Source: a virus (lineage: Duplodnaviria > Heunggongvirae > Uroviricota > Caudoviricetes). Taken from it: 32,849 bases of DNA. The position numbers were made by a program, and so were the translations under genes. The notes under the pieces are model-generated. The model was not told the DNA's origin. It was given only the letters and a program-made list of their open reading frames with translations, and did not search any database. This document shows positions 2,451-28,906 of this stretch, piece after piece. The DNA is taken from IMG/VR virus record IMGVR_UViG_2778261588_000008, positions 1 through 32,849 of that record; one strand, given 5' to 3'. The number at the start of each line of letters is the position of its first letter. Positions within the stretch are counted from its first letter, which is position 1.

Positions 2451-3278
2451 TTATTTAATCTGGATAAATGGTGTATTGGCACCACTGGTCATGTATTGCG
2501 GCAGTGTACCGTTCCACTTGTTGATGGCTTCCAGCTCCATGACGCCTGGGTTCTGGCGTAGAGCTTCGCCGCGTAAACGAATGGCATCGGCTTCTGCCTG
2601 GGCTTTTGTTCGAATGGCATCAGCCTGTCCGGCAGCTTCCGCACGTAGCATGTTGGCCTCCGCTTCACGTTGCTTGACTTCCTGCTCGCGCTGCAGGGTT
2701 TTCTGGTTTGCCGTGACTTTGGCGTTAATGCTGTCGATAACGGTTGGAGGGTATTCCGGTTTACCTACATAAGAGAGGCTCATTACCTGAATGCCGATGG
2801 GTGTCATCTCTTCCTGAATGTCTTTAAGTGCGGCATCCAGTAGTTCAGACTTGCCACCGTCGATAAATTTGTCAGTGGTCATTTTGCTGGCCAGCCGATT
2901 GAGTGCGTCGGCAATTTTCTGGCGCAGGTCAGTGTCGGTAATGTCATCCACGCCTTTGCGGTAGGTCTGAAACACCGTGGTAACTTTGGATGGATCAACT
3001 TTGTAGGCCACACCGATGTGATAGCCGATGGTTGTACCGTCACTCATCTGGAAACTGAACGGTTCATCGTAGGTCTTCATTTGTTTGAAGGTGGGGAAGA
3101 TATAAACTTCAGTATTCCAGCCAGTCCAGTAGCGACCAACACCGACCACCTCACCGACACCTTTGTCGTCGCCTAGTTTATTTACCTTGATGCCAACATT
3201 ACCTGGTTCAACGCGATCGCAACCGACAAGGCCAATAGTCGGCAGAACAATGGCTAAAGCAAAAATAATTTTTTTCAT
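2451..3278 (-). CDS. SPFH/band-7 (stomatin/prohibitin/HflK-C-like) lipoprotein
   Basis: 275 aa; N-terminal signal with lipobox LVGC; central SPFH-like region followed by Ala/Glu/Arg/Gln-rich coiled coil (REQEVKQREAEANMLRAEAAGQADAIRTKAQAEADAIRLRGEA) typical of band-7 proteins; SD AAGGA 7 nt before ATG; start overlaps stop of upstream small membrane ORF. Confidence 0.8.
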   Translation of the reverse strand: MKKIIFALAIVLPTIGLVGCDRVEPGNVGIKVNKLGDDKGVGEVVGVGRYWTGWNTEVYIFPTFKQMKTYDEPFSFQMSDGTTIGYHIGVAYKVDPSKVTTVFQTYRKGVDDITDTDLRQKIADALNRLASKMTTDKFIDGGKSELLDAALKDIQEEMTPIGIQVMSLSYVGKPEYPPTVIDSINAKVTANQKTLQREQEVKQREAEANMLRAEAAGQADAIRTKAQAEADAIRLRGEALRQNPGVMELEAINKWNGTLPQYMTSGANTPFIQIK

Positions 3279-3463
3279 CTTTTATCCTTAGTGAAAGAAA
3301 GACCCTTGTAAATGGCATAAATGCAGGGCGGGGTCAGAAACGCCAGTGCAAAGCCAGAAATAACTGCTATCGTATCCTTCATGGATATAAGGAACGGAAC
3401 GAATAATCCGTAAATGCATGCGATAATTGCCAGTAAAATTACTATTTTGAAATACAGTCTCAT
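3275..3463 (-). CDS. small membrane protein (62 aa, 2 predicted TM helices)
   Basis: Hydrophobic ORF; stop overlaps start of the SPFH gene (ATGA-type coupling), as in SPFH + small membrane partner pairs. Confidence 0.55.
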   Translation of the reverse strand: MRLYFKIVILLAIIACIYGLFVPFLISMKDTIAVISGFALAFLTPPCIYAIYKGLSFTKDKR

Positions 3464-3639: not shown

Positions 3640-4221
3640 TTAATGTGTCACTGGCGCTTCTGGCATACCATGAGTATTCAGGTCGTTAATCATTTCATCC
3701 AGAAGGAGTTCAAGCCCTTCGCGCCCCATAGCAGAGAGAATGAAACCATTATCAGGATCTGCGATGAGCATTTTTTGATAGAGAAACAGAACTCGCCCCA
3801 TGCCTTCAGTTTCGCCATATTTTTCAATAAATCCCCATTCGACATGGTTTTGCAGGGCAATGCGAAGTGGTCCTGGGTATATACTCATGCAACCATGTTT
3901 CCCCTTATAAATAACTGCGCGATCTGTCGTCCCGTTATCGTTAGGGATATCAATAGTGCCGTTCTTGTTTTCCTCTTCACTGATAAACGTTGCCACATAC
4001 AGCCAGCGCCATTGAGCAACCTTCATATCGACTGAAAATCTTCCCAGGAATCTGGCATCATCGGCTTCAGCAATACATTGCATGATTCTTAAGCCGTGCC
4101 AGTATGGATTGTCGTATTCACCATCATTAAGTCGCTGTACGGCCTCAACATAATCAATGGTTGTATTGTCAATTTTTATGCCATGAGCTGTCGCTTCTGG
4201 TTTGAATTCAAAATTGTTCAT
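3640..4221 (-). CDS. hypothetical protein (193 aa)
   Basis: ORF 3640-4296 trimmed to ATG at 4221 (MNNFEFK) with AAGGAA SD; start overlaps stop of upstream 62-aa ORF. No recognisable motif. Confidence 0.6.
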   Translation of the reverse strand: MNNFEFKPEATAHGIKIDNTTIDYVEAVQRLNDGEYDNPYWHGLRIMQCIAEADDARFLGRFSVDMKVAQWRWLYVATFISEEENKNGTIDIPNDNGTTDRAVIYKGKHGCMSIYPGPLRIALQNHVEWGFIEKYGETEGMGRVLFLYQKMLIADPDNGFILSAMGREGLELLLDEMINDLNTHGMPEAPVTH

Positions 4222-4406
4222 AATGTTTGTTCCTTTGCTGGTGGAATAATCGTGTAACCCGCTCTTTTTGCCATCCACAGAAATGTATCCATGCAACCAA
4301 CGAATTCATTATCCAACAGATGTTTTGAGTAAATTACTTCACCATTTTCAATGGTTAGCAACACTCTTACTTTTTTATGTGTTATGTTCTGTTGTTTTTC
4401 TTTCAT
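4218..4406 (-). CDS. hypothetical protein (62 aa)
   Basis: ATG at 4406 with GGGAGA SD 7 nt upstream; translationally coupled to the 193-aa gene. Confidence 0.5.
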   Translation of the reverse strand: MKEKQQNITHKKVRVLLTIENGEVIYSKHLLDNEFVGCMDTFLWMAKRAGYTIIPPAKEQTL

Positions 4407-4807: not shown

Positions 4808-5260
4808 TTACTCCTTTGCAGCATTGCTACCAGTCAATAACCACATCGGATCGCAGCCAAGAATATTTGCCAGTGGGATAAGCATACTGATGGTTGGTTC
4901 ATACTCTCCGCTCTCCCACTGGATGATGATTTCTTCATCAAGAGCGAGCAGCCTGGCGAGTTCGGCTGTTGTTAAGCCGCAGGCTTCGCGTTGGGTGCGA
5001 AGGTTAACCAGCCAGCTTTCAGGGAAGGATTGTTTTTGTTGTGCAGGAGAAGCAGCAGATAGAGCATATTCATGGATAAATTCCATTACCTCAATGCCCA
5101 GTTCCTTTGAGCGAGCACAATCCAGAAGATGGAATGTGCGTACAGCACTTAGCAAATTTGCAATATTTAATGCAAAGGAATCAAGTTCTAAGCCCTTAAG
5201 CGTAACACAGCCGCAGTTGATAAAATTAGTTGTTTCTGGAGTTGCTTTTAGTGTCTTCAT
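4808..5260 (-). CDS. XRE-family HTH DNA-binding protein with N-terminal accessory domain
   Basis: 150 aa; C-terminal HTH_XRE-like segment (GLTTAELARLLALDEEIIIQWESGEYEPTISMLIPLANILG); first gene downstream of a strong leftward promoter; SD GGTGGA. Confidence 0.7.
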   Translation of the reverse strand: MKTLKATPETTNFINCGCVTLKGLELDSFALNIANLLSAVRTFHLLDCARSKELGIEVMEFIHEYALSAASPAQQKQSFPESWLVNLRTQREACGLTTAELARLLALDEEIIIQWESGEYEPTISMLIPLANILGCDPMWLLTGSNAAKE

Positions 5261-5313
5261 ATATCCACCAACAATTTTAAATTGAATTAAATCAAGTTAT
5301 AATTGATGGTGCG

Positions 5314-5342
5314 ATATTATGCTTTGGGAAATAGGCTGTCAA
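5314..5342 (-). promoter_or_regulatory. leftward early promoter (PL analog): TTGACA - 17 bp - TAATAT
   Basis: On minus strand: -35 TTGACA (5342-5337), 17-nt spacer, -10 TAATAT (5319-5314). A 17-bp near-palindrome ATCAAGTTATAATTGAT (5291-5307) sits at the predicted transcription start and is a candidate OL operator. Confidence 0.55.
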
Positions 5343-5372
5343 GAAAAAATTGATATCGTATATTTCAGGCAG

Positions 5373-5392
5373 AAAAAAACGGGCAAAGCCCG
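5373..5392 (-). terminator. intrinsic terminator downstream of cI
   Basis: On minus strand CGGGC-TTT-GCCCG hairpin followed by T7, 14 nt after the cI stop codon. Confidence 0.7.
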
Positions 5393-5405
5393 TTAAAATC
5401 AAAGA

Positions 5406-6095
5406 CTAACCAAATCTGTTTATGTTGAATGGTACTGATGAGATCACTTTAGACTGGATATAAAGCAGAGCTAACCCCTCTTTTTCGATGCTCCATGGTT
5501 GATAATTGGGGTTATCAGATAACACCATGATTTTGCTTCCAATTTTTTGAAGCCTTTTCACGTAGCATTCTCCATCAAAACAAAATGCATAAATACCATC
5601 GCCATCAAAATAAGTTACTGTCTTATCAAGAAAAAGAAGGTCGCCAGGTGAGATTGTGGGAGCCATACTGTCTCCTCTGGCGTTACCTATTTCTATATTT
5701 TTGAATGCCCGATTTCCAACAAGACGTCGGGCATATTCAGGATCAAGTTCTATTGAGCGCACTACATCTATCAAGTCACCACGGACATGAGTTCCATCAC
5801 CGCAACTAAACTCAACATCAAGGACATTAAACACGACGCTATCTGTTCTTGTCTGGTGTTTCTCTTGCGAGGAAAAGGTTGGTGAGGAGTCTTCACCTAA
5901 GAACCAGGATTGTGGATAACCGCTAATCTCTGATAAATGCGCGAGCTTATCACTCCGTGGAAATGTTTTTCCTGTTGTCCAGTACTGCACTGATTGCGCA
6001 CTCACACCTAACTTGCGGGCCAGTTGAGCCTGAGTCCATCCTTTTGCTTTCAGCATCGCGGCTATTCGATTTTCCGTGTTTTTGACGTTCTTCAT
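5406..6095 (-). CDS. cI: CI-type prophage repressor (N-terminal HTH + C-terminal S24/LexA-like autopeptidase)
   Basis: 229 aa; N-terminal HTH (GWTQAQLARKLGVSAQSVQYW); C-terminal G-D-S-M (Ser nucleophile) and downstream Lys in YVKRL, as in lambda CI/LexA; divergent from cro-like gene. Confidence 0.9.
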   Translation of the reverse strand: MKNVKNTENRIAAMLKAKGWTQAQLARKLGVSAQSVQYWTTGKTFPRSDKLAHLSEISGYPQSWFLGEDSSPTFSSQEKHQTRTDSVVFNVLDVEFSCGDGTHVRGDLIDVVRSIELDPEYARRLVGNRAFKNIEIGNARGDSMAPTISPGDLLFLDKTVTYFDGDGIYAFCFDGECYVKRLQKIGSKIMVLSDNPNYQPWSIEKEGLALLYIQSKVISSVPFNINRFG

Positions 6096-12561: not shown

Positions 12562-13446
12562 TTATATTGGGCGCTTTGAATTCGATTTAAAGCGTCTTCC
12601 ACTTATTCCAGAAACCCAAATGTCTTCCTCAAGAAAGTCAAGAAGGGCTTTTATTTCTTTTTTTGATGAAGGCATGACAATTTTCTCAACACCACCAACT
12701 ATTATGGTTTGTAAGGGGAATTTAACTTTAGCAGCTTCGGATTTAAACTTTGACATATTTGGGAGTGTTAGCATCCCAGTCTGATTTATTAGTGTTACTT
12801 TATTTCTTATCACTGTATCTGCAACGGATTTTAGATCAAAACCTTGGGGAGTAGAAAATACACTAAGTTGACTAAATGCATTAAGTTCTTGGTCAGTAGC
12901 AGCAGAAAAATAGGACGACATGTCAAAAATACTTCTTAGATTAAAGAAACTCTTAAATCGTATTGTATCATTGATAATTATTGCAACTAGTTTATCATCA
13001 ACATTAAAACCGATGCTATTAGCTTTACTAAAGGTAGTTTTGCTTGCACAAAGCTTTCCAAAGAATGATTTTGAGGTATCTAAGATTTGTTTTTTGTTGA
13101 AAGTTTGTAGTGCAATAATATTGGGGTTTGCTGGCGCGTCAACACCAACAAATAATGCTTTAATATAACCAATATCAATTTGGCTAGGATCCCAGATAGG
13201 CACGGCGGTAGGCCTATTGACTGCGTCAATCAGGCGTGCAGAATCAGTAAAGTTTTGTATTTCAAAACACTCACTATGTTTTGGTGTATAACCGGCATAG
13301 AATGGTATCATATTGTTATGATGACTTTCAAAATATTGACGCTGTTGTTGGAAAATGGCCGTAACAGAAGTACTTGCTGTTGCATCAAGTTCGACTCTAA
13401 CAATTCTCGTTGCAATTGTATTATCTATTACTGCAAAAAGTGCCAT
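12562..13446 (-). CDS. hypothetical protein (294 aa), second gene of counter-oriented AT-rich cassette
   Basis: ATG at 13446 with AAAGGA SD; 6 nt downstream of the membrane-protein stop; visibly AT-rich codon usage unlike flanking phage genes; no catalytic motif recognised. Confidence 0.7.
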   Translation of the reverse strand: MALFAVIDNTIATRIVRVELDATASTSVTAIFQQQRQYFESHHNNMIPFYAGYTPKHSECFEIQNFTDSARLIDAVNRPTAVPIWDPSQIDIGYIKALFVGVDAPANPNIIALQTFNKKQILDTSKSFFGKLCASKTTFSKANSIGFNVDDKLVAIIINDTIRFKSFFNLRSIFDMSSYFSAATDQELNAFSQLSVFSTPQGFDLKSVADTVIRNKVTLINQTGMLTLPNMSKFKSEAAKVKFPLQTIIVGGVEKIVMPSSKKEIKALLDFLEEDIWVSGISGRRFKSNSKRPI

Positions 13447-13451
13447 GGTTA

Positions 13452-13970
13452 TTATCCTTTAACATGTAGAAATGTGTAGTCTGTTAATTGAATAACTGTA
13501 AATTTGATATCTTTAATATCAGTAATGACTGATTTAGAAATCAATACAAAACCTACGCCGGTGTCATCTTCAGCTTCGTAAAATTTATAACCGATAAGTG
13601 ACAATACTGGGTTAAAGTTATAGTTCTCGGAAAAGCTGATGTAAAATAACAATGACAAATAAAAGAATAACGCATATGCTTTATTTTCAGCAATAGAATC
13701 TGTTCCTAGGAGAGGGAATAAATAGCTTAAGAAATAATTAGTTACTTCTTTGTTAGCGGGAGAAACTGAACTAATATTTTTTGTCAGAGGTTCAAGTTGT
13801 TTCTCAGCATATTGAATCAGGCCTATTGCTAATAACCAACTTGCTATGCCAACGCATAAGCTATATTGCATCAGCCAAACCGTATCTTTTACATATCCAA
13901 TAAAAAATAGAGTTGCGCAAACAGGTGCAATTGAGCTGGCTGTTAATAATAAGCGTGCTAATTTGTTCAT
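13452..13970 (-). CDS. integral membrane protein (~4 TM helices), first gene of counter-oriented cassette
   Basis: 172-173 aa (two adjacent ATGs, AAAGGA SD); four hydrophobic segments then a ~60-aa soluble C-terminus; AT-rich. Confidence 0.7.
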   Translation of the reverse strand: MNKLARLLLTASSIAPVCATLFFIGYVKDTVWLMQYSLCVGIASWLLAIGLIQYAEKQLEPLTKNISSVSPANKEVTNYFLSYLFPLLGTDSIAENKAYALFFYLSLLFYISFSENYNFNPVLSLIGYKFYEAEDDTGVGFVLISKSVITDIKDIKFTVIQLTDYTFLHVKG

Positions 13971-14135
13971 CATGATATCCTTTGTACTGTTTATGCATAC
14001 AGCACTTTACATCATGTACTCCAAAGTATCTATCTTGTGAAGAATCTTACACTAAATACTACAGAAAAGTTAACGCGTACGCAAAAAGTATTATATCGTG
14101 TTAAGAGTGGTTACTTCGCCACACAGCTTAAACCC

Positions 14136-14626: not shown

Positions 14627-15673
14627 ATGGCTAATACTGTAAAAATATCCAGTTGTGAGTTAATCAACGCTGATTGCCTGAAATTTATCCGGACCTTACC
14701 GGAAAACTCTGTCGATCTGATAGTCACAGACCCGCCATACTTTAAAGTGAAGCCCGAGGGCTGGGATAACCAGTGGAAGGGCGATGATGATTACCTGCAA
14801 TGGCTGGACCAGTGTCTGGCTCAGTTCTGGCGGGTATTAAAACCTGCCGGAAGTCTTTACCTGTTCTGTGGTCATCGCCTGGCATCTGACACCGAACTCA
14901 TGATGCGTGAACGTTTTAATGTGCTGAACCACATTATCTGGGCGAAGCCGTCCGGACGCTGGAATGGGTGCAACAAGGAAAGCCTGCGGGCGTATTTCCC
15001 GGCAACAGAGCGCATTCTGTTTGCCGAACATTATCAGGGGCCATATCAGCCAAAAAATGACGGCTATGCGGCAAAAGGGCGCGAGCTTAAGCAGCACGTA
15101 ATGGCCCCGCTGATTTCTTACTTCCGTGATGCGCGTGAATCACTGGGGATAACGTCAAAACAGATAGCTGAAGCCACCGGAAAGAAAAACATGGCTTCGC
15201 ACTGGTTTGGTACCAGTCAGTGGCAGTTACCGAATGAGGCCGATTACAGTAAACTACAGGCGCTGTTTGCACGTGTGGCGGCAGAAAAACACCAGCGCGG
15301 TGAACTGGAGCAGCCACACCACCAGCTGGTCAGCACATACAGCGAACTGAACCGGCAATATGCCAGCCTGCTGGAGGAATACAAATCACTGCGGCGTTAT
15401 TTTTCCGTATCGGCTGTTGTTCCTTATACGGATGTCTGGACGCACAAGCCCGTGCAGTTTTATCCGGGTAAGCATCCCTGTGAAAAACCGGCGGATATGT
15501 TGCGTCAGATAATTACTGCCAGCAGCCGTCCAGGCGATTTGGTCGCAGATTTTTTTATGGGGTCGGGGTCGACAATAAAAGCGGCACTGTCGCTGGGACG
15601 CAGGGCGATTGGCGTGGAACTGGAAGAGGAACGTTTTAATCAGACGGCCAGAGAAATAACGAAAGATTTTTAA
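14627..15673 (+). CDS. orphan DNA N6-adenine methyltransferase (beta-class, N6_N4 MTase family)
   Basis: 348 aa; motif IV DPPY near N-terminus (LIVTDPPYF) and AdoMet motif I F.GSGST near C-terminus (FFMGSGSTI): circularly permuted beta-class order; no adjacent restriction endonuclease gene. Confidence 0.85.
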   Translation: MANTVKISSCELINADCLKFIRTLPENSVDLIVTDPPYFKVKPEGWDNQWKGDDDYLQWLDQCLAQFWRVLKPAGSLYLFCGHRLASDTELMMRERFNVLNHIIWAKPSGRWNGCNKESLRAYFPATERILFAEHYQGPYQPKNDGYAAKGRELKQHVMAPLISYFRDARESLGITSKQIAEATGKKNMASHWFGTSQWQLPNEADYSKLQALFARVAAEKHQRGELEQPHHQLVSTYSELNRQYASLLEEYKSLRRYFSVSAVVPYTDVWTHKPVQFYPGKHPCEKPADMLRQIITASSRPGDLVADFFMGSGSTIKAALSLGRRAIGVELEEERFNQTAREITKDF

Positions 15674-15890
15674 TTCAGTGATGATATAAGTTGTATATTT
15701 CTGATACAGATGTATACACATATTTAAAACTGAACACCAAATATATTTTTGATGTCTGAAAAACTGTCGTTAGTATTCTGACTGGTCCGGAAGACGGTTA
15801 TTTTTGTGTTCACAGGGGCGTTACTATCGTCTGAAGGACCAGTGCTGGCTTTCCTGGTAATTCGTGTGATTCCGGAAGCCAGTACAGTAT

Positions 15891-15965
<75 letters not shown>

Positions 15966-16330
15966 GCATTTGAAACAAGCCTTATTGTATTGCGGCACTG
16001 GCGTATTTTTTATTACGTGGGAGCAGGTTGTTTTGAAAAAGCATTTTGTTCTCTGGCTATGATTTGAGGCCAGGTGTAGCCTCAGTGCTGATTTTTTTAC
16101 GACAGCAGAATGGTGCATTATCGGTGGAGATTTTGTATTTCCTGGCAGGGTCGGTGATGCATCATTCTGGTGTTGTAAATCGCACCAAAGAGGCGCACCT
16201 CAGTGCGAGGGTGGTTTAAAGAGTCGGTTTAGCGGGAAACCACAGTATCCATACAGCACGGAATACTTCGGGAGGCACCCGACGCCTCGGTTTAATAACA
16301 ATTAAAAAATTCATCCCTTGCATTGACCAA

Positions 16331-16353
16331 CCGCCATATCTGGCGGTTTTTTT
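16331..16353 (+). terminator. intrinsic terminator in the tRNA-to-lysis non-coding region
   Basis: CCGCCA-TATC-TGGCGG hairpin followed by T7. Confidence 0.6.
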
Positions 16354-16679
16354 ATTCCTTTCTCAGGACGAAAAAAGACACGAGCATCCAGGAATACTCG
16401 TGGGACAACGTCCTTTGGATAGCAATTTGCGAGAGGGTGAAAAGTAGCGCGGTCGTCGGATTAAGACCGCGGGACAAAGTCCATGAAGAATAATAAGTAT
16501 TGGCCCCCTTCCGGGGACATGTTCATACTACTAAGCTTCAGAAGTGGTTTAAATCCTCAAATTAACCTTAATTTCCGATAAGTCTTATTTCATTTCTTTG
16601 CGCCACATCTGGCGCGCATCAAATAACGCCACGCAAAGAGCATCTGCGGATGCCGGTGCTTTTGACGGGGTGTTTTTAC

Positions 16680-16701
16680 GGGCCGCTGGTGGCCCTTTTT
16701 T
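16680..16701 (+). terminator. terminator/attenuator-like hairpin immediately upstream of the lysis operon
   Basis: GGGCC-GCTGGT-GGCCC hairpin then TTTTTTATTT, ending 19 nt before the first lysis-gene ATG. Confidence 0.45.
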
Positions 16702-16719
16702 ATTTACAGGAGAAAAAGT

Positions 16720-17112
16720 ATGTCTGAACCCTTGTCCGGTTCCGGCACGGCTGCGGCGCTCGGCGGGGCGACGGTATTCGGGCTGTTTACTGGAACGGAT
16801 TTCGGGATTGTGTTTGGTGCGTTCGCCGGGGCGTTGTTTGTGGCAACGATGCCGCAGAAGATTTCAGCCTGGCGTGTGGCGGCACATTTTCTGGTGTCGT
16901 TCATTGTTGGTGTACTGGGGGCGCGTGTACTGTCAGCCTGGATTGCATCAAAAACAGGTTATGACGGTACATCTGCGGATGCACTGTGTGCGGTGCTGGT
17001 GGCGGTGGTGTCGGTGAAGACTCTGTCGTTCATCCACCAGCAGGATATCGCATCACTGGTGTCCGGCCTGTTCTCGCGCCTGCGGGGCGGAGGAGGCGGC
17101 AATGTTAAGTAA
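16720..17112 (+). CDS. putative holin (multi-TM membrane protein)
   Basis: 130 aa; AGGAG SD; 3-4 Gly/Ala-rich hydrophobic helices, charged C-terminus; first gene of cluster ending in endolysin. Confidence 0.55.
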   Translation: MSEPLSGSGTAAALGGATVFGLFTGTDFGIVFGAFAGALFVATMPQKISAWRVAAHFLVSFIVGVLGARVLSAWIASKTGYDGTSADALCAVLVAVVSVKTLSFIHQQDIASLVSGLFSRLRGGGGGNVK

Positions 17113-17380
17113 CCTTCCCGGATTGCTGAATGTGGCGTTATGCACGGTTACCGTGCTGACGCTCTTTTTTTATCGTCGCCGTGATTCCAGACATAAACCG
17201 CTGATGTCATGGCTGGCCTGGCTGCTGATGCTGCTGTATGCCTTTGCGCCCCTCAGCTATCTGTGTGGTCGCCCGTTAGCGGCGAACTGGCTGGCGGTGG
17301 GGCTTAATTTGCTGTTCTGCGTGCTGGTGATTCGCGCACGCGGGAACGTTTCAAAAATCCTTGTATTACGAAGGCGCTGA
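17102..17380 (+). CDS. putative second holin / antiholin-like membrane protein
   Basis: 92 aa; 3 hydrophobic segments, basic C-terminus; overlaps upstream gene end and abuts endolysin start. Confidence 0.5.
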   Translation: MLSNLPGLLNVALCTVTVLTLFFYRRRDSRHKPLMSWLAWLLMLLYAFAPLSYLCGRPLAANWLAVGLNLLFCVLVIRARGNVSKILVLRRR

Positions 17381-17381
17381 T

Positions 17382-17927
17382 ATGAAGTCGAAAGATGAAA
17401 TTTTTGACGAAATTCTGGGAAAAGAGGGCGGTTACGTCAATCACCCGGATGATAAAGGTGGTCCGACTAAATGGGGCATCACTGAAAAAGTTGCCCGTGC
17501 ACACGGTTATCAGGGCGATATGCGTGACCTGACGCGTGGGCAGGCGCTGGAAATACTCGAGGCGGATTACTGGTTCGGGCCACGTTTTGACCAGGTCGCC
17601 GCATTATCCCCTGATATTGCCGCAGAGTTGTGTGATACCGGTGTGAATATGGGGCCGTCCGTAGCATCGAAAATGCTCCAACGCTGGCTGAACGTTTTCA
17701 ACCTGCAAGGCAAATTGTTCCCGGATATGGACGCAGACGGGCGTATCGGCCCCCGCACGATTAACGCACTACGGACTTATCTGCAAAAACGCGGCAAAGA
17801 CGGCGAACTGGTGATGCTGAAGGCGCTGAATTGCACGCAGGGCGACCGCTATCTGGGGCTGGCAGAAAAACGCGAGGCCAACGAGTCGTTTGTCTACGGC
17901 TGGATGAAAGAGCGCGTAGCAGTTTAA
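17382..17927 (+). CDS. endolysin, GH108-type muramidase with C-terminal peptidoglycan-binding domain
   Basis: 181 aa from ATG 17382 (ORF-track start 17361 is TTG); N-terminal EGGYVNHPDDKGGPTKWGIT matches GH108 signature; C-terminal region resembles PG_binding_3. Confidence 0.85.
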   Translation: MKSKDEIFDEILGKEGGYVNHPDDKGGPTKWGITEKVARAHGYQGDMRDLTRGQALEILEADYWFGPRFDQVAALSPDIAAELCDTGVNMGPSVASKMLQRWLNVFNLQGKLFPDMDADGRIGPRTINALRTYLQKRGKDGELVMLKALNCTQGDRYLGLAEKREANESFVYGWMKERVAV

Positions 17928-18025
17928 AAACTGACGCTGAAGGGCTGAACACCCTCAACTCACGCAGGCTCTTTTCTGGGGTTACGATGAGTGAAAGTAA
18001 GGGGTACAGCATCAGATAGCAAAAA

Positions 18026-18055
18026 CCCCGGCTGCTGGAACAGTCCGGGGTTTTT
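18026..18055. terminator. bidirectional intrinsic terminator after endolysin
   Basis: 9-bp GC-rich stem with one bulge (CCCCGGCTG / CAG(T)CCGGGG), 6-nt loop, flanked by A5 upstream and T5 downstream. Confidence 0.7.
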
Positions 18056-18146
18056 AGTTTTCACGTCAAAGAGAAAATTGTGAGTAGTGAGTACGGAGAA
18101 AATCCTCGTGGGAAAGTATAAAAGATTCTTTTTGAGGTTGTCCATT

Positions 18147-18260
18147 ATGAAAGGTATTGAAGTGGAAACTCCCGCGAGCCTTGATTTGACAAGGGCTGTG
18201 GCCTTTGCAATCCGCCTTGTGGCGGTCGCTGTTCTGATTTGGGCTGTACGTTGGTGGTGA
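18147..18260 (+). CDS. possible membrane micro-protein (37 aa)
   Basis: Hand-translated MKGIEVETPASLDLTRAVAFAIRLVAVAVLIWAVRWW; GAGG SD 9 nt upstream; stop 1 nt before next ATG. Confidence 0.3.
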   Translation: MKGIEVETPASLDLTRAVAFAIRLVAVAVLIWAVRWW

Positions 18261-18261
18261 C

Positions 18262-18444
18262 ATGAGCCGAAAACACTGGACACACAGAATGCCGCGAACG
18301 GCGGCGAAATGGGCACTGGTAGCGATACTGGTGCCTTTTTTATTGGTGGGGTGCGTCAGCCTGGATAAGGCGCGCCAGTTTTTCGATACGGCTTCTCAGG
18401 TCTGCGAAATTGTCGACGGTGTTCGACAGTGTCTGCAGAGCTGA
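18262..18444 (+). CDS. small lipoprotein (60 aa; mature part ~30 aa with 3 Cys)
   Basis: Signal peptide with lipobox LLVGC; GGTGGTG SD; not Pro-rich, so unlike typical Rz1 o-spanins. Confidence 0.45.
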   Translation: MSRKHWTHRMPRTAAKWALVAILVPFLLVGCVSLDKARQFFDTASQVCEIVDGVRQCLQS

Positions 18445-18617
18445 TCGCCCGTAAGAGCAGAATATTTCGCTGAAAAATGAAGGGTGCGCCAGCGTCCAGA
18501 AAGCATGAAATTCTGCTGTGTGTGCCAATTTGTCTTATACATTCTGAATCTTGCCGAATCAGGATGAACTTTGAACAACAGCCCGGGCGGCAAGGGGCAT
18601 TTTTATCCGGAGGGGAT

Positions 18618-18842
18618 ATGAAGAGATTACTGGTAACCGTAAAGCCCTTTAACGGAACGATTCCATTCAGGGTTTTGCAGCGTGGACGTGTTCTGGTTAA
18701 GGATATCTTCAGTGGTAAATGCACGGAGTGTTATTCCCGGACATATGAAGTGGATGCCACGGATGAAGAAATTTCTGTTGAATGTGATCTGAACGCAAAT
18801 ATGGCGGGGATTGTAACGGCCACGTTGTTGCCTGTTTCATGA
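18618..18842 (+). CDS. hypothetical protein (74 aa)
   Basis: Internal ATG with GGAGGGG SD; upstream part of the track ORF lacks an SD. Confidence 0.45.
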   Translation: MKRLLVTVKPFNGTIPFRVLQRGRVLVKDIFSGKCTECYSRTYEVDATDEEISVECDLNANMAGIVTATLLPVS

Positions 18843-18882
18843 ATGACATAGAATGTCTCTGGGTACCCAAAAGGAGAACACT

Positions 18883-19098
18883 ATGTTTGTAGAAAATAAC
18901 CTGAAGGCTGATCCTGATAATCAGGGATGGGTTCTTGGTTGGGCTGTAGTACGTGACAAACCCTGGCATCTGGTCGGCATTTATGCAACGGAGGATGGCG
19001 CAAAGTCTAAACGTTCTGAATTGAATGGGGAGTATGAAGTTCGTTATGGTTCCCATCGTTTAGGTAGTGATGATTTTATGTCTGTCGGACTTAGCTAA
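18883..19098 (+). CDS. hypothetical protein (71 aa)
   Basis: ATG with AAGGAG SD; followed by strong terminator. Confidence 0.5.
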   Translation: MFVENNLKADPDNQGWVLGWAVVRDKPWHLVGIYATEDGAKSKRSELNGEYEVRYGSHRLGSDDFMSVGLS

Positions 19099-19120
19099 CT
19101 GGCTGTGATGTCTGTTTGTA

Positions 19121-19144
19121 GCCCCGCAAATGCGGGGCTTTTTT
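19121..19144 (+). terminator. intrinsic terminator
   Basis: GCCCCGC-AAAT-GCGGGGC perfect 7-bp GC stem followed by T6. Confidence 0.75.
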
Positions 19145-19160
19145 ATATCTGGAGATGATG

Positions 19161-19457
19161 ATGGAAAAAACAGAAAACAAACCGGTTGCAATTGGTGCCG
19201 CTGCTGTTCCGTTTAAGTTTGAGTTGTCTCAACTGGTGGAGATGCGCATCAGTGATGAATGGGGTGAGGTTAAAGCCCGCGCGCAGTATGCGGATGGCGA
19301 AAACCAGTACTTACTCCACTACAAAGCTGCTGATGGTCGCGCCACGACGGAGTGGTTTGGTGAGTCAATGCTGGAAGCAACAGAAGATGCTCGTCATCCT
19401 GGTTGTCCGGTATTTGCAGGTATGAAATTACCGGAAGGCGCAGTCGTTACTGAGTAA
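19161..19457 (+). CDS. hypothetical protein (98 aa)
   Basis: Third in-frame ATG chosen for GGAG SD spacing; followed by a GC hairpin (CAGCCC/GGGCTG) with no T-run. Confidence 0.45.
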   Translation: MEKTENKPVAIGAAAVPFKFELSQLVEMRISDEWGEVKARAQYADGENQYLLHYKAADGRATTEWFGESMLEATEDARHPGCPVFAGMKLPEGAVVTE

Positions 19458-19518
19458 CAGGCATTACAGCAGCCCTTCAGCGAGGGGCTGCGATAATGCC
19501 GGTATTAAGGAGATTCCA

Positions 19519-19869
19519 ATGCCATCACGAATACCCCGCGCCTGTCGTAAGCGTGGATGTGCAGGCACAACAACAGACAGTTCGGGTTACTGCGATAAGC
19601 ATCGCGGTGAAGGCTGGGTGCAGCACCAGCGCGGACTGAGCCGCCACCAGCGTGGCTATGGCTCAAAATGGACGGTGATTCGTGCCCGTATTCTGAAGCG
19701 CGATAAAGGTCTGTGTCAGTTGTGTCTGCGTGTCGGTGTGGTGAGCGAGGCGAAAACTGTCGACCACATCATCCCGAAAGCGCATGGCGGAACAGACGCA
19801 AACAGCAACCTGCAGAGTCTGTGCTGGCCCTGCCACAAAGAGAAAACAGCGCGCGAACGAATCAAGTGA
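19519..19869 (+). CDS. HNH endonuclease (terminase-associated)
   Basis: 116 aa; Cys-rich N-terminus, HNH core DHIIPKAHGG...N.NLQSLCWPCHKEKT; AAGGAG SD; directly upstream of terminase genes as in HK97-like cos phages. Confidence 0.8.
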   Translation: MPSRIPRACRKRGCAGTTTDSSGYCDKHRGEGWVQHQRGLSRHQRGYGSKWTVIRARILKRDKGLCQLCLRVGVVSEAKTVDHIIPKAHGGTDANSNLQSLCWPCHKEKTARERIK

Positions 19870-19884
19870 TAATTATTCTCACTT

Positions 19885-19950
19885 GTTGGGAGGGGCGGGT
19901 CAAATCCCTGCAGCCCTGGCTGTCCGGGACCGCCGCCTGACCCTTCCTCA
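19885..19950. other. putative cos / packaging initiation site
   Basis: GC-rich block between HNH and terS with nested dyad symmetry: GGGCGGGTC ... CAGCC-CT-GGCTG ... GACCGCCGCC; minus-strand GGCGGCGGTCC resembles the lambda cohesive-end motif GGGCGGCGACCT as recalled. Confidence 0.35.
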
Positions 19951-20016
19951 CATCGCCGCAGGTTCGAAAACTTTTTTTTGGAAATGTGAACAAACGATTG
20001 ATAGGTAAGACCGATT

Positions 20017-20499
20017 ATGTCAGGACCTCCGAAAACCCCGCCACGCCTGCATTTGATACGAGGCAACCCCTCAAAGCGTCCCGTTAAAGACCACAAAAAA
20101 ACCGCTAAAAAGGATGAAAAAGGTCTTCCTAAAATTCCGCAGCATTTAGGGGCTCAGGGGAAGTACTGGTTCAGGCGAATGGCGGAAGAGCTGAATGCGG
20201 AAGGGATCATTTCTCAGCTTGATGCACGTGCGCTCGAGTTGCTGGTGGAAGCCTACACCGAATATCGGCATCACTGCGAAACACTCGATGTTGAGGGGTA
20301 TACTTACCGCACGGAAACGCAGAGCGGTGATGTACTGATTAAGGCGCACCCCGCGGCGGCAATGAAAGCGGATGCCTGGAAGCGGATCCGGGCAATGCTT
20401 GCAGAGTTTGGTATGTCACCGGCAAGCCGGGCTAAAGTAAATATCGCCGGACCGGATGATGTTGATCCGCTGGCGGAGCTTTTAAAAGCGAGAGACTGA
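20017..20499 (+). CDS. terS: terminase small subunit (P27 family-like)
   Basis: 160 aa; basic N-terminus with LIRGNPSKRP motif; stop overlaps terL start (ATGA). Confidence 0.75.
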   Translation: MSGPPKTPPRLHLIRGNPSKRPVKDHKKTAKKDEKGLPKIPQHLGAQGKYWFRRMAEELNAEGIISQLDARALELLVEAYTEYRHHCETLDVEGYTYRTETQSGDVLIKAHPAAAMKADAWKRIRAMLAEFGMSPASRAKVNIAGPDDVDPLAELLKARD

Positions 20500-22256
20500 T
20501 GGCAAAAGTGGCTGACGGGATCCGCTACGCCGAACGTGTTGTTGCAGGAGAAATTGTTGCTGGCGAATTTGTCCGCCTGGCCTGCCAGCGTTTTCTTGAT
20601 GATCTGAAGTACGGCGAAGAGCGGGGGATTTATTTCAGTGAACCCCGTGCGCAGCACATCCTGAATTTCTACAAATTTGTGCCTCATGTAAAAGGGGCGC
20701 TGGCAGGCCAGCCCATTGAGTTGATGGACTGGCATGTATTTATCCTCATTAATATTTTTGGTTTTGTCATTCCGCTGGTCAATGAAGAGACCGGGGAAGT
20801 TGTCATGCGCAGCGATGGCAGCGGACGTCCGGTGATGGTGCGCCGGTTCCGGACGGCGTACAACGAAGTCGCCCGTAAAAACGCAAAATCAACTCTGTCA
20901 TCGGGTATCGGCCTGTATATGACGGGGGCAGATGGTGAAGGCGGAGCTGAGGTGTATTCAGCCGCAACCACGCGTGACCAGGCCAGAATCGTGTTTGAAG
21001 ACGCCAAAAATATGGTCAGAAAAGCCCGGTCGACACTCGGGCGGTTGTTTGATTTCAACAAGCTGGCGATTTACCAGGAGCAGAGCGCATCAAAATTTGA
21101 ACCGCTTTCTTCGGATGCAAACAACCTGGATGGTCTGAACATCCACTGCGCCATTATTGATGAGCTGCATGCACATAAAACCCGTGACGTGTGGGACGTT
21201 CTGGAAACGGCAACCGGTGCTCGTCTGCAGTCCCTTTTATTTGGTATCACCACGGCAGGGTTTAACAAGGAAGGGATTTGTTACGAGCAGCGTGATTACG
21301 CCATCAAGGTATTGCGTGGCTATAACAGCGACGTGGAGGGCGCGGTAAAAGACGACTCCTACTTTGCGATTATTTACACCCTCGATGAGGGAGATGATCC
21401 GTTTGATGAAACGGTCTGGCAGAAAGCGAATCCCGGCCTGGGCATCTGTAAACGCTGGGATGATCTGCGTCGCTTGGCGAAAAAAGCGAAAGAACAGGTC
21501 TCTGCACGGGTGAATTTTTTTACCAAACACATGAATGTGTGGGTAACAGCAGAGTCTGCCTGGATGGACATGATTAAGTGGGAGAAATGCGAATATATTG
21601 CCCCACGACATGAGCTTAAAACGTATCCCATGTGGGTCGGCGTCGACCTTGCTCATAAGATTGATATCTGTGCGGCGGCAAAACTCTGGCGAACCGATAA
21701 CGGACATGTTCATGCTGATTTTAAATTCTGGCTCCCGGAAGGACGGCTGGAGCGGTGCTCGCGGCAGCAGGCAGAACTTTACCGGAAATGGGCGGAGATG
21801 GATAAGCTCATCCTGACGGATGGTGATGTTATCGATCATGCTCAGATAAAAAGTGACTTACTGGAATGGATTGGTGGTGAAAACCTGAGGGAGCTGGGAT
21901 TTGACCCGTGGAGTGCAATGCAGTTCAGTCTGGCTCTGGCTGAAGAAGGGATACCGCTGGTGGAAGTTCCGCAGACGGTCCGCAATCTGTCAGAGGCCAT
22001 GAAGGAAACGGAATCACTGGTCTATGCCGGGCGTTTTCACCACAGCAATCACCCGGTCATGAACTGGATGATGTCTAACGTTACGGTAAAACCGGACAAA
22101 AACGACAATATCTTCCCGAACAAATCCACGCCTGAAGCCAAAATCGACGGCCCTGTTGCGATGTTTACAGCAATGAGCCGGATGCTGGTCAATGGCGGTG
22201 AACCGGAGCCGGATCTGTCTGAACACCTGATTAGTGTTGGTATCCGCTCGCTTTAA
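20499..22256 (+). CDS. terL: terminase large subunit
   Basis: 585 aa; N-terminal ATPase followed by nuclease domain; sits between terS and portal. Confidence 0.9.
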
Positions 22257-28564: not shown

Positions 28565-28906
28565 ATGAGAAAATCAGTGGTGACATTAGCTTGTTTGTTT
28601 TTTATTAGTGCATGTAAGCCATCAGATAATTATGTTATTTCTTTAGGGGAAAACTTAGTTAAAGATAAGCTTATTGATCCTGATAGTGCAAAATTTAATT
28701 CTTTTTTTCATAAGTCAGGTGATTTATATGGTTATGTTTGTGGTGATGTTAATTCAAAAAACACGTTTGGTGGATATACAGGGAAAAAGCCATATTTTGT
28801 TTATTTGGAAGTTGTGGATGGAAAAGTTAAGAGTCATGGGACTGTAACAATTGTTAATGATCATGATCCAAGCAGTATGGAAAAATATAAGTTGTTTTGC
28901 CAATAA
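28565..28906 (+). CDS. lipoprotein moron (113 aa), unknown function
   Basis: ATG 28565 with AGGAGG SD (ORF-track start 28535 lacks SD); signal peptide with lipobox FISAC; visibly AT-rich; followed by terminator. Confidence 0.6.
   Translation: MRKSVVTLACLFFISACKPSDNYVISLGENLVKDKLIDPDSAKFNSFFHKSGDLYGYVCGDVNSKNTFGGYTGKKPYFVYLEVVDGKVKSHGTVTIVNDHDPSSMEKYKLFCQ

Follow-up and report, generated by a model that had tools for sequence, protein, structure and literature searches.

An orphan, minimal o-spanin-like lipoprotein as the best reading of a small gene allelic with Rz/Rz1 in a phiP27-type prophage

The viral sequence IMGVR_UViG_2778261588_000008, analysed over its whole length of 32,849 nucleotides (the window), comes from an Enterobacteriaceae genome and represents a lambdoid prophage of the phiP27/Glaedevirus type. 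Two small plus-strand open reading frames (ORFs) follow its endolysin gene. ORF-A encodes a micro membrane protein and ORF-B a prolipoprotein of 60 amino acids (aa). ORF-B is allelic with the lambda-type spanin genes Rz/Rz1 and occupies the spanin slot to the nucleotide. On the sequence evidence, the best reading of ORF-B is that of an orphan, minimal o-spanin-like lysis lipoprotein. The original prediction had placed the two small ORFs at 18147-18260 and 18262-18444. These coordinates were recovered, and both ORFs are coding as judged by the ratio of nonsynonymous to synonymous differences (pN/pS) and by their PHROG matches. The features at issue are as follows.

18108..18260, plus strand: ORF-A, predicted small tail-anchored inner-membrane peptide (phrog_4493, E 3e-23; pN/pS; start homology)
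18252..18264, plus strand: ORF-A/ORF-B coupling junction, TGG TGG TGA c ATG (same junction before ORF-B in the window and locus L093, and before Rz in locus L101 and phage GER2)
18262..18444, plus strand: ORF-B, 60-aa prolipoprotein, occupant of the spanin slot (phrog_7528, E 9e-37)

ORF-B in the Rz/Rz1 slot

The cassettes compared were retrieved by exact-sequence look-up of two ORF-A variants. They share a backbone consisting of holin8, holin3_7, an M15 endolysin and the 37-aa form of ORF-A (2501-2614 in the retrieved loci), with near-identical coordinates. Position 2616 starts the 60-aa ORF-B in all eight places retrieved with one variant (L091-L098; variant present in 4369 index blocks), and it starts a 154-aa Rz (PF03245, 2616-3080) with an embedded Rz1 (PF06085) in all six places retrieved with the other (L099-L104; variant present in 882 index blocks). 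In pairwise blastn comparisons, the homology of the two cassette types extends through the start codon of the slot gene (CGT TGG TGG TGA y ATG) and then stops.

The two alleles exclude each other. We analysed 96 ORF-B loci (97 in the scan for a partner) and, for comparison, 80 IMG/VR loci with Rz. ORF-B was found in none of the 80 Rz loci, though many of them share the downstream genes p74, p71, HNH and terS. Only one ORF-B locus also has Rz, namely that of phage GER2 (L005, MG710528), in which ORF-B has three in-frame stops. This pseudogene lies at 5297-5485, downstream of an intact Rz/Rz1 and next to the terminase genes, and it looks like a relic of cassette exchange. Exclusivity with Rz/Rz1 argues for functional equivalence rather than regulation. 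Among phage records, phiP27, phiSTEC1575-Stx2k and vB_Apl-pPE4 carry ORF-B without Rz/Rz1. The last of these (L007, PP818812.1) is named as an Actinobacillus phage; its cassette is of E. coli type, with an unannotated ORF-B of 95% aa identity, and the host assignment may be open to doubt.

The position of ORF-B is held across five genera and two endolysin types. It lies downstream of a holin-holin-endolysin cassette in 92 of the 96 loci, with the endolysin beyond the fetched sequence in the other 4, and it is the last cassette gene in prophages of E. coli, Salmonella, Citrobacter, Yersinia and Lelliottia. The distance from the endolysin stop is at most 25 nt in 38 of the 96 loci. In the compact cassettes of Yersinia enterocolitica prophages the endolysin gene and ORF-B overlap as ATGA, and in a Lelliottia prophage, which has an unrelated holin, the GH108 endolysin gene overlaps ORF-B. 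As the commonest layout is a gap of about 20 nt or an overlap, ORF-B is likely expressed with the lysis genes. ORF-B DNA is present in 305 of 5426 complete E. coli genomes (about 6%). A scan of species-representative genomes gave 3 loci only, which provide context and are too few for statistics.

ORF-B thus lies where an o-spanin gene is looked for, in or next to the lysis cassette, and no second small lipoprotein is encoded in the lysis region. Recognisable Rz/Rz1 spanins had been reported missing, correctly so for the window: it contains neither a relative of Rz/Rz1 nor an i-spanin-like ORF, and its late region encodes no further small lipoprotein. No ORF with an N-terminal transmembrane domain (TMD) and a periplasmic domain, as expected of an i-spanin, is conserved within 1.5 kb of ORF-B across the 97 loci.

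ORF-B is a real coding sequence under purifying selection. Compared with diverged homologues, its pN/pS is 0.22-0.36 in frame, versus 0.9-1.5 in the alternative frames of the two ORFs. The original description of the product, a 60-aa lipoprotein with the lipobox LLVGC and a mature part of about 30 aa that has three Cys and is not Pro-rich, was accurate, and the mature part has no Pro at all. The signal peptide comprises codons 1-30 (18262-18351), with a long basic n-region, an h-region and the lipobox L-V-G/C31; the predicted lipidated residue is Cys31 (18352-18354), with V32 at +2. The mature part of 30 aa (18352-18441) reads CVSLDKARQFFDTASQVCEIVDGVRQCLQS and includes Cys48 (18403-18405) and Cys57 (18430-18432) besides Cys31. 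A lipobox Cys followed by a residue other than Asp is typical of o-spanins, and G30 and C31 are invariant in 25 diverse homologues. Val at +2 directs lipoproteins to the outer membrane, and ORF-B is predicted to be sorted there.

At 90% clustering the family has 155 homologues, all from Enterobacteriaceae. G30, C31 and C48 are invariant and C57 is near-invariant, being present in at least 90% of the sequences; the C-x8-C spacing makes C48 and C57 candidate disulfide residues. The start codon is M1 and not M10, at which both PGAP and the phiP27 record start the ORF: position 10 is T, V, A, I or Q in many homologues, and residues 1-9 are conserved. A Shine-Dalgarno (SD)-like motif lies 5' of M1 in most contexts examined, and is weak in locus L077 and in phiP27. 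AlphaFold2 models ORF-B as a single long helix over residues 12-59 (pLDDT 68). The mature part is amphipathic, with a maximum hydrophobic moment of 0.50-0.62, a value that shuffled sequences reach in 0.3-11% of trials. Members of the E. coli branch carry a net charge of -1 in this part; elsewhere in the family the values run from 0 to +3, the latter found in one divergent member.

Divergent members have changed the signal peptide and kept the mature motif [WL]-F-[GD]-x-A-x-x-V-C-x2-[IV]-x2-[IV]-x3-C. A functional signal peptide, as in the bacteriocin release proteins (BRPs), was considered and rejected on this ground. Most of the signal-peptide conservation appears to reflect close relatedness together with an RNA hairpin described below. 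A profile search of 1.84 billion representatives returned 25 clusters only, all of them ORF-B family members or fragments, and linked no known spanin to the ORF-B profile. No Pfam or NCBIfam family matched ORF-B even at E up to 10, including PF06085, the Rz1 family. Two other matches were set aside. The profile matched a designed repeat protein among the PDB sequences, over low-complexity or lipobox stretches only, which is not meaningful; and a match of one divergent member to PF02402 Lysis_col (E 0.07) is confined to the lipobox region and is not significant. A likeness to the Lpp coiled coil, noted by eye only, is no basis for proposing Lpp mimicry.

Proposed role of ORF-B and competing explanations

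The likeness of ORF-B to lambda-type Rz/Rz1 (PF03245/PF06085) lies in the slot, the backbone, the ORF-A/SD junction, late expression, an outer-membrane lipoprotein component and periplasmic Cys. The differences are that ORF-B has no sequence similarity to them and no i-spanin, and that its mature part is helical and Pro-free, whereas that of Rz1 is Pro-rich and unstructured. Small prolipoproteins with envelope effects are known outside phages. The colicin lysis proteins, or BRPs (PF02402), are 45-60 aa long with mature parts of about 27-35 aa and permeabilise the envelope or cause bacteriolysis, the BRPs through activation of PldA; the entericidins are amphipathic helical lipoproteins. ORF-B resembles both the colicin lysis proteins and entericidin B in prolipoprotein architecture, sharing size and lipidation with PF02402. 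However, it has no significant homology to either, no PF02402 membership could be established, and their context is plasmid or chromosomal whereas that of ORF-B is phage.

Two known phage solutions do without a second protein. A u-spanin is anchored in the inner membrane by a C-terminal TMD, and its periplasmic domain comprises about 100 residues or more (PMC6139136). Like the u-spanin gp11 of T1, ORF-B would be a single gene product for the outer-membrane step and has an N-terminal lipoprotein signal; its mature part, however, has only 30 residues and no hydrophobic segment downstream of Cys31. The disruptin gp28 of phiKT is described as cationic and antimicrobial-peptide-like, with no lipoprotein signal (bioRxiv 10.1101/515445). 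ORF-B resembles gp28 as a small single protein with an amphipathic helix that would replace spanins in outer-membrane disruption, and differs from it in its predicted lipid anchor and in its net charge, which is -1 here.

These comparisons lead us to think that ORF-B may well be the fourth and last gene of the lysis cassette, performing the outer-membrane lysis step or being essential for it with no phage inner-membrane partner; on the sequences at hand we consider the chance an even one. It is a more tentative suggestion that ORF-B stands for a third class of phage outer-membrane disruptor, beside the spanins and the cationic disruptin. For such a one-component protein, an outer-membrane-anchored lipoprotein with a 30-residue amphipathic helix that replaces Rz/Rz1, the name 'solo o-spanin' could be used. 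That this would be a common arrangement in enterobacterial prophages, including Stx2e and Stx2k phages, is put forward with similar reserve.

In the mechanism that we envisage, ORF-B would be transcribed together with the late and lysis genes by a Q-antiterminated polymerase that reads through the terminator upstream and the hairpin within the gene. Translation would begin at M1, in the window coupled to the ORF-A stop. The product would be exported by Sec, lipidated at Cys31 (Lgt/LspA/Lnt) and sorted by Lol to the inner leaflet of the outer membrane, because the +2 residue is Val. The 30-residue amphipathic helix would accumulate while the murein is intact, possibly as oligomers linked by Cys48/Cys57 disulfides. 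After the holin has fired, the endolysin would clear the murein and the inner membrane would be pressed onto the outer membrane, and ORF-B would then act. In the final step ORF-B could destabilise the outer membrane directly, fuse it with the inner membrane pressed against it, or switch on a host factor such as the phospholipase PldA, the last option being modelled on the colicin lysis lipoproteins.

Several considerations weigh against this reading. A mature part of 30 aa with no partner is too short to span the periplasm, and the known spanin mechanism does not apply to ORF-B as such, because 30 residues cannot bridge that distance. We know of no precedent for a solo outer-membrane lipoprotein that disrupts the outer membrane in phage lysis. 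The mature peptide of the E. coli branch is net-anionic, unlike cationic membrane-active peptides, and the structural model, with its pLDDT of 68, is of moderate quality only. The loci analysed are related prophages and not independent samples. A literature search found no experimental work on the ORF-B family or on phiP27 lysis. In addition, a moron hot spot (KilA-N, a 93-aa gp52-like ORF and a 90-aa antisense ORF) separates endolysin and terminase, and replacement of Rz/Rz1 by an unrelated cargo gene is conceivable.

According to this cargo explanation, ORF-B would be a lipoprotein for lysogenic conversion or superinfection exclusion (Bor-, Cor- or Llp-like) that displaced Rz/Rz1, and the phages would be spanin-less and rely on shear or another route. 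Disulfide-bearing phage lipoproteins that block receptors are known, namely T5 Llp and Cor, and would be the models for such a protein. Besides these and the moron hot spot, the explanation draws on the terminator that precedes the module in the window and on the finding that about 13% of phages (91/677) were without spanins in a 2018 census (PMC6139136). The transcription signals bear directly on it.

18018..18059, both strands: bidirectional intrinsic terminator in the gap between endolysin and ORF-A, a hairpin flanked by A5/T5
18311..18342, plus strand: terminator-like hairpin (11 bp) with U6 inside the signal-peptide codons of ORF-B (scan; dG -19.2 kcal/mol, z -3.1)

The bidirectional terminator that had been noted after the endolysin gene was borne out. 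Its dG is -24.9 kcal/mol on the plus strand and -23.5 kcal/mol on the minus strand (z -5.9/-5.2), and none of 200 shuffles was equally stable. It moves with the ORF-A module in relatives; the homology to phiSTEC1575-Stx2k starts at about 18022. The module had been thought to be isolated between two strong terminators, which holds for the upstream side only. Directly 3' of ORF-B no significant terminator was found, 18440-18620 folding like shuffles (z +0.3/-0.5), and the next plus-strand terminator, at 19120-19145, lies two ORFs further on. No plus-strand sigma-70-like promoter was found in 16500-19600. Inside ORF-B, homologues from Salmonella, Citrobacter and Lelliottia preserve the stem of the second hairpin at synonymous sites and show a change in the loop, and in phiSTEC1575-Stx2k a single Leu-to-Pro change turns a G.U pair of the hairpin into G-C, that is, from wobble to Watson-Crick. 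The signal half of ORF-B has a lower pS than the mature half. This hairpin may block read-through into ORF-B by polymerase that is not antiterminated.

Overall, we regard the cargo explanation as unlikely. A moron would have its own promoter and terminator; no plus-strand promoter was found for ORF-B in 16500-19600 and no significant terminator directly 3' of it, and in most relatives the gene abuts or overlaps the endolysin gene, with a gap of about 20 nt or an overlap as the commonest layout. Strict exclusivity with Rz/Rz1, the decay of ORF-B where Rz is present, and conservation of position over five genera and two endolysin types also speak against cargo. PADLOC returned no match for ORF-A, ORF-B or the three ORFs downstream. 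The suggestion of a lysogenic-conversion or toxin-like module is disfavoured by the missing promoter, by the lack of an intergenic gap in many relatives, by the endolysin overlap in several genera and by the lack of PADLOC, Pfam and NCBIfam matches.

A second explanation keeps ORF-B as a true o-spanin and supposes a hidden partner, either a host envelope protein or the periplasmic loop of a holin-type protein of the cassette. A published entry for phiP27 is relevant both to it and to the main reading, for which it is an independent earlier call. Kongari et al. 2018 (PMC6139136) listed this phage with a 'separated' two-component spanin of the shortest combined periplasmic length (62 aa) among 528 two-component systems. 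The o-spanin of that entry (20706-20861, a 51-aa call) formed a singleton family with 83% predicted helix. It corresponds to the phiP27 homologue of ORF-B started at M10; this homologue has 92% identity over all 60 residues and lies in the same cassette type; the o-spanin-like nature of the family was already noticed in 2018, by sequence features only. The i-spanin was called at 20348-20542 (PMC6139136), with 64 aa and a TTG start. No PHROG family matched this ORF, which runs antisense within a larger, unannotated ORF of 90 aa whose whole length matches phrog_36812: in our phiP27 locus (L002, NC_003356) the 90-aa ORF is at 2654-2926 on the minus strand and the census ORF at 2670-2864 on the plus strand. 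Only 3 of about 97 ORF-B loci carry the phrog_36812 module. The census i-spanin ORF is probably not a gene, and the two-component assignment is not tenable, because its i-spanin has no family match, is antisense to the phrog_36812 ORF and is not conserved. A separate survey of Stx phages found Rz in 277 of 279, with two metallopeptidase-endolysin phages and a classical holin exclusive to its cluster C. We infer that the two Rz-less phages of that survey, in which P27 is unnamed, are the P27-like ones.

A hidden partner would be in keeping with the o-spanin hallmarks of ORF-B, that is, a predicted outer-membrane lipoprotein, periplasmic Cys, a position in the lysis cassette and the census call, and the 92-aa holin-type protein of the cassette has a Cys in a predicted periplasmic loop. 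Yet the same two holin-type genes also serve Rz/Rz1 cassettes, and the Lelliottia ORF-B occurs with an unrelated holin, so that ORF-B co-varies with no phage membrane protein. At 30 aa, the mature part is moreover far shorter than any known spanin complex, phiP27 being already extreme at 62 aa combined. Such a partner appears quite improbable to us, and the orphan o-spanin-like lipoprotein is retained as the preferred reading.

ORF-A, an accessory ahead of the slot

The start of ORF-A could be GTG 18108 (50 aa), ATG 18147 (37 aa, 18147-18260, also the PGAP call) or GTG 18087 (57 aa). GTG 18108, with the N-terminus MGKYKRFFLRLSIMKG, appears most likely, because the start codon is kept in relatives, where it is ATG or GTG in all cases (ATG in the variant ORF-A', GTG in GER2 and L101), because GGAG lies 9-10 nt upstream, because the homology between the cassette types sets in at this codon, and because position 1-2 of the phrog_4493 profile aligns at residue 8-9 of the 57-aa form. 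Of the 37-aa single-TMD peptide originally proposed, the ORF and its C-terminal hydrophobic stretch therefore remain, with the start moved upstream. ORF-A is a real coding sequence under purifying selection, with a pN/pS of 0.08-0.15 at a pS of about 0.6 against diverged homologues. No Pfam, NCBIfam or PADLOC match was found for it, and phrog_4493, like phrog_7528 of ORF-B, is a PHROG family without assigned function.

The sole hydrophobic segment of ORF-A stops 2-3 residues short of the C-terminus, and the N-terminus is rich in Lys and Arg. ORF-A is predicted to be oriented N-in, with only RWW outside and no periplasmic domain, because of its basic N-terminus (positive-inside rule) and the extreme C-terminal location of the hydrophobic segment. 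Its last codons double as an SD-like GGTGGTGA ahead of the slot gene, and its stop codon TGA (18258-18260) ends 1 nt before the ATG of ORF-B.

The distribution of ORF-A is independent of that of ORF-B. In the Stx phage GER2, an ORF-A of 88% identity lies between the lysozyme gene R and a full Rz with embedded Rz1, with its stop 1 nt before the Rz ATG, and ORF-A is directly ahead of Rz/Rz1 in L099-L104 too. In PhiR12-type phages a 50%-identical ORF-A', together with a second membrane ORF of 43 aa, lies between R and Rz/Rz1; ORF-A' is a replacement variant with a different C-terminus in the same place. Conversely, ORF-A is absent from 45 of the 92 ORF-B loci that have the endolysin inside the locus, among them phiP27 and the compact Yersinia cassettes. 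The two genes had been described as a coupled pair. Stop and start are indeed 1 nt apart, so that ORF-A and ORF-B are translationally juxtaposed, but they are not a dedicated or obligate pair. Since ORF-A is found in front of Rz/Rz1 as well, and about half of the ORF-B loci lack it, it is not an i-spanin; it is an independent conserved accessory ahead of the spanin slot in several lambdoid lineages. It would supply the SD motif and the stop/start translational coupling to whichever slot gene comes next, and its own role may possibly lie in lysis timing.

The ORF-A' variant comes with a third small membrane ORF, ORF-C (43-44 aa, phrog_4906; 4862-4996 in locus L053 and 4192-4323 in locus L006), which like ORF-A is found ahead of either ORF-B or Rz/Rz1. 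The occurrence of ORF-A, ORF-A' and ORF-C ahead of either allele points to an interchangeable set of micro membrane proteins in the endolysin-spanin interval of lambdoid phages.

It could be argued that ORF-B, ORF-A or both set the timing of lysis, as an antiholin-like protein or as a modulator of endolysin or envelope stress. The cassette position, the small size and membrane association of the proteins, and the presence of ORF-A ahead of either slot allele, which fits an accessory or regulatory role, agree with this. An outer-membrane-sorted lipoprotein with Val at +2 would, however, be poorly placed to control an inner-membrane holin, and the exclusivity with Rz/Rz1 points to functional equivalence. 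We therefore find a lysis regulator very improbable.

There remains the notion that ORF-A and ORF-B form a highly reduced two-component spanin, which we can give hardly any credence: the genes are adjacent and coupled in the window (TGA c ATG), and the 2018 census allowed a C-terminal-TMD, N-out protein as i-spanin in principle (PMC6139136), but ORF-A precedes complete Rz/Rz1 in GER2 and L099-L104, is missing from 45 of 92 ORF-B loci, is predicted N-in with RWW alone outside, and is exchanged for ORF-A' with another C-terminus, so that the distribution essentially refutes the model. What survives of the reduced spanin equivalent first proposed is the lipoprotein by itself, on account of slot exchange and exclusivity, and not a two-part unit.

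The cassette in its prophage setting and significance

From the left end, the window carries the integrase, early genes, a Q-type antiterminator region, a DNA methylase gene, a tRNA-Gly gene and then the plus-strand late block. The late block runs in the order PF16931 holin, PF05449 holin, endolysin, ORF-A, ORF-B, three small ORFs without assigned function, HNH endonuclease, terminase and head/tail genes. The neighbouring features are listed below.

15891-15965, plus strand: tRNA-Gly, anticodon tcc, shortly 5' of the lysis cassette
16720..17112, plus strand: holin-type membrane protein, 130 aa, first gene of the lysis cassette (PF16931 Phage_holin_8, E 2e-23; phrog_198 holin)
17102..17380, plus strand: second holin-type protein, 92 aa, three transmembrane segments (PF05449 Phage_holin_3_7, E 8e-21; phrog_217 holin)
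17382..17927, plus strand: endolysin, 181 aa, GH108 and PG_binding_3, without signal-arrest-release or signal sequence (PF05838, E 5e-26; PF09374, E 5e-25)
19519-19869, plus strand: HNH endonuclease
20017-22256, plus strand: P27-type terminase

The GH108 endolysin swaps with an M15 peptidase endolysin in relatives. In E. coli MEI7BO1-21, a mosaic relative, the query region is identical (100%) and the holins have diverged (87% and 84% aa identity). Deletion of a 130-aa holin gene (WP_032083190) downstream of stx2e abolished antibiotic-induced release of Stx2e (PMC12571312). Because the primer sequences of that study match both ends of the PF16931 holin of the window, at least the holin part of such a cassette appears to be functional. 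An Rfam scan of 15600-20100 returned the tRNA only, plus sub-threshold chance matches.

Three further loci of the window deserve mention. Two genes on the minus strand at 12562-13973, between the antiterminator region and the lysis cassette, encode a 294-aa KwaB-like protein (PF16162, E 1e-6) and, upstream of it, a 173-aa protein with an N-terminal hydrophobic segment; they resemble a Kiwa-type anti-phage defence pair that the prophage carries as cargo. A gene for a predicted lipoprotein of 113 aa (28565-28906, plus strand; lipobox FISA/C; phrog_2320, function unassigned) separates the tail assembly chaperone genes from the tape-measure gene; it may be a moron, and its product could act in surface exclusion. 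In the early-left region, an SPFH/Band-7 domain protein with a lipoprotein signal (LVG/C) is encoded at 2451-3278 on the minus strand, followed by a membrane ORF of 62 aa (3275-3463, minus strand).

For the ORF-B family, the analysis gives a place in the lysis cassette to proteins that so far carry no annotation beyond "hypothetical protein", in many cases with the start misplaced, and it revises a published census entry, in that the i-spanin call of phiP27 appears spurious. The family is present in Stx2e- and Stx2k-converting phages, in which lysis governs toxin release. Spanins are thought to bridge and fuse both membranes. If the proposed role is correct, ORF-B would show that the outer-membrane step can be accomplished from the outer membrane alone, and the question of spanin-less phages would become directly testable in E. 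coli by means of the existing lambda complementation platform. A minimal outer-membrane-active lipopeptide of this kind could also be of interest for engineered lysis and for outer-membrane permeabilisation.

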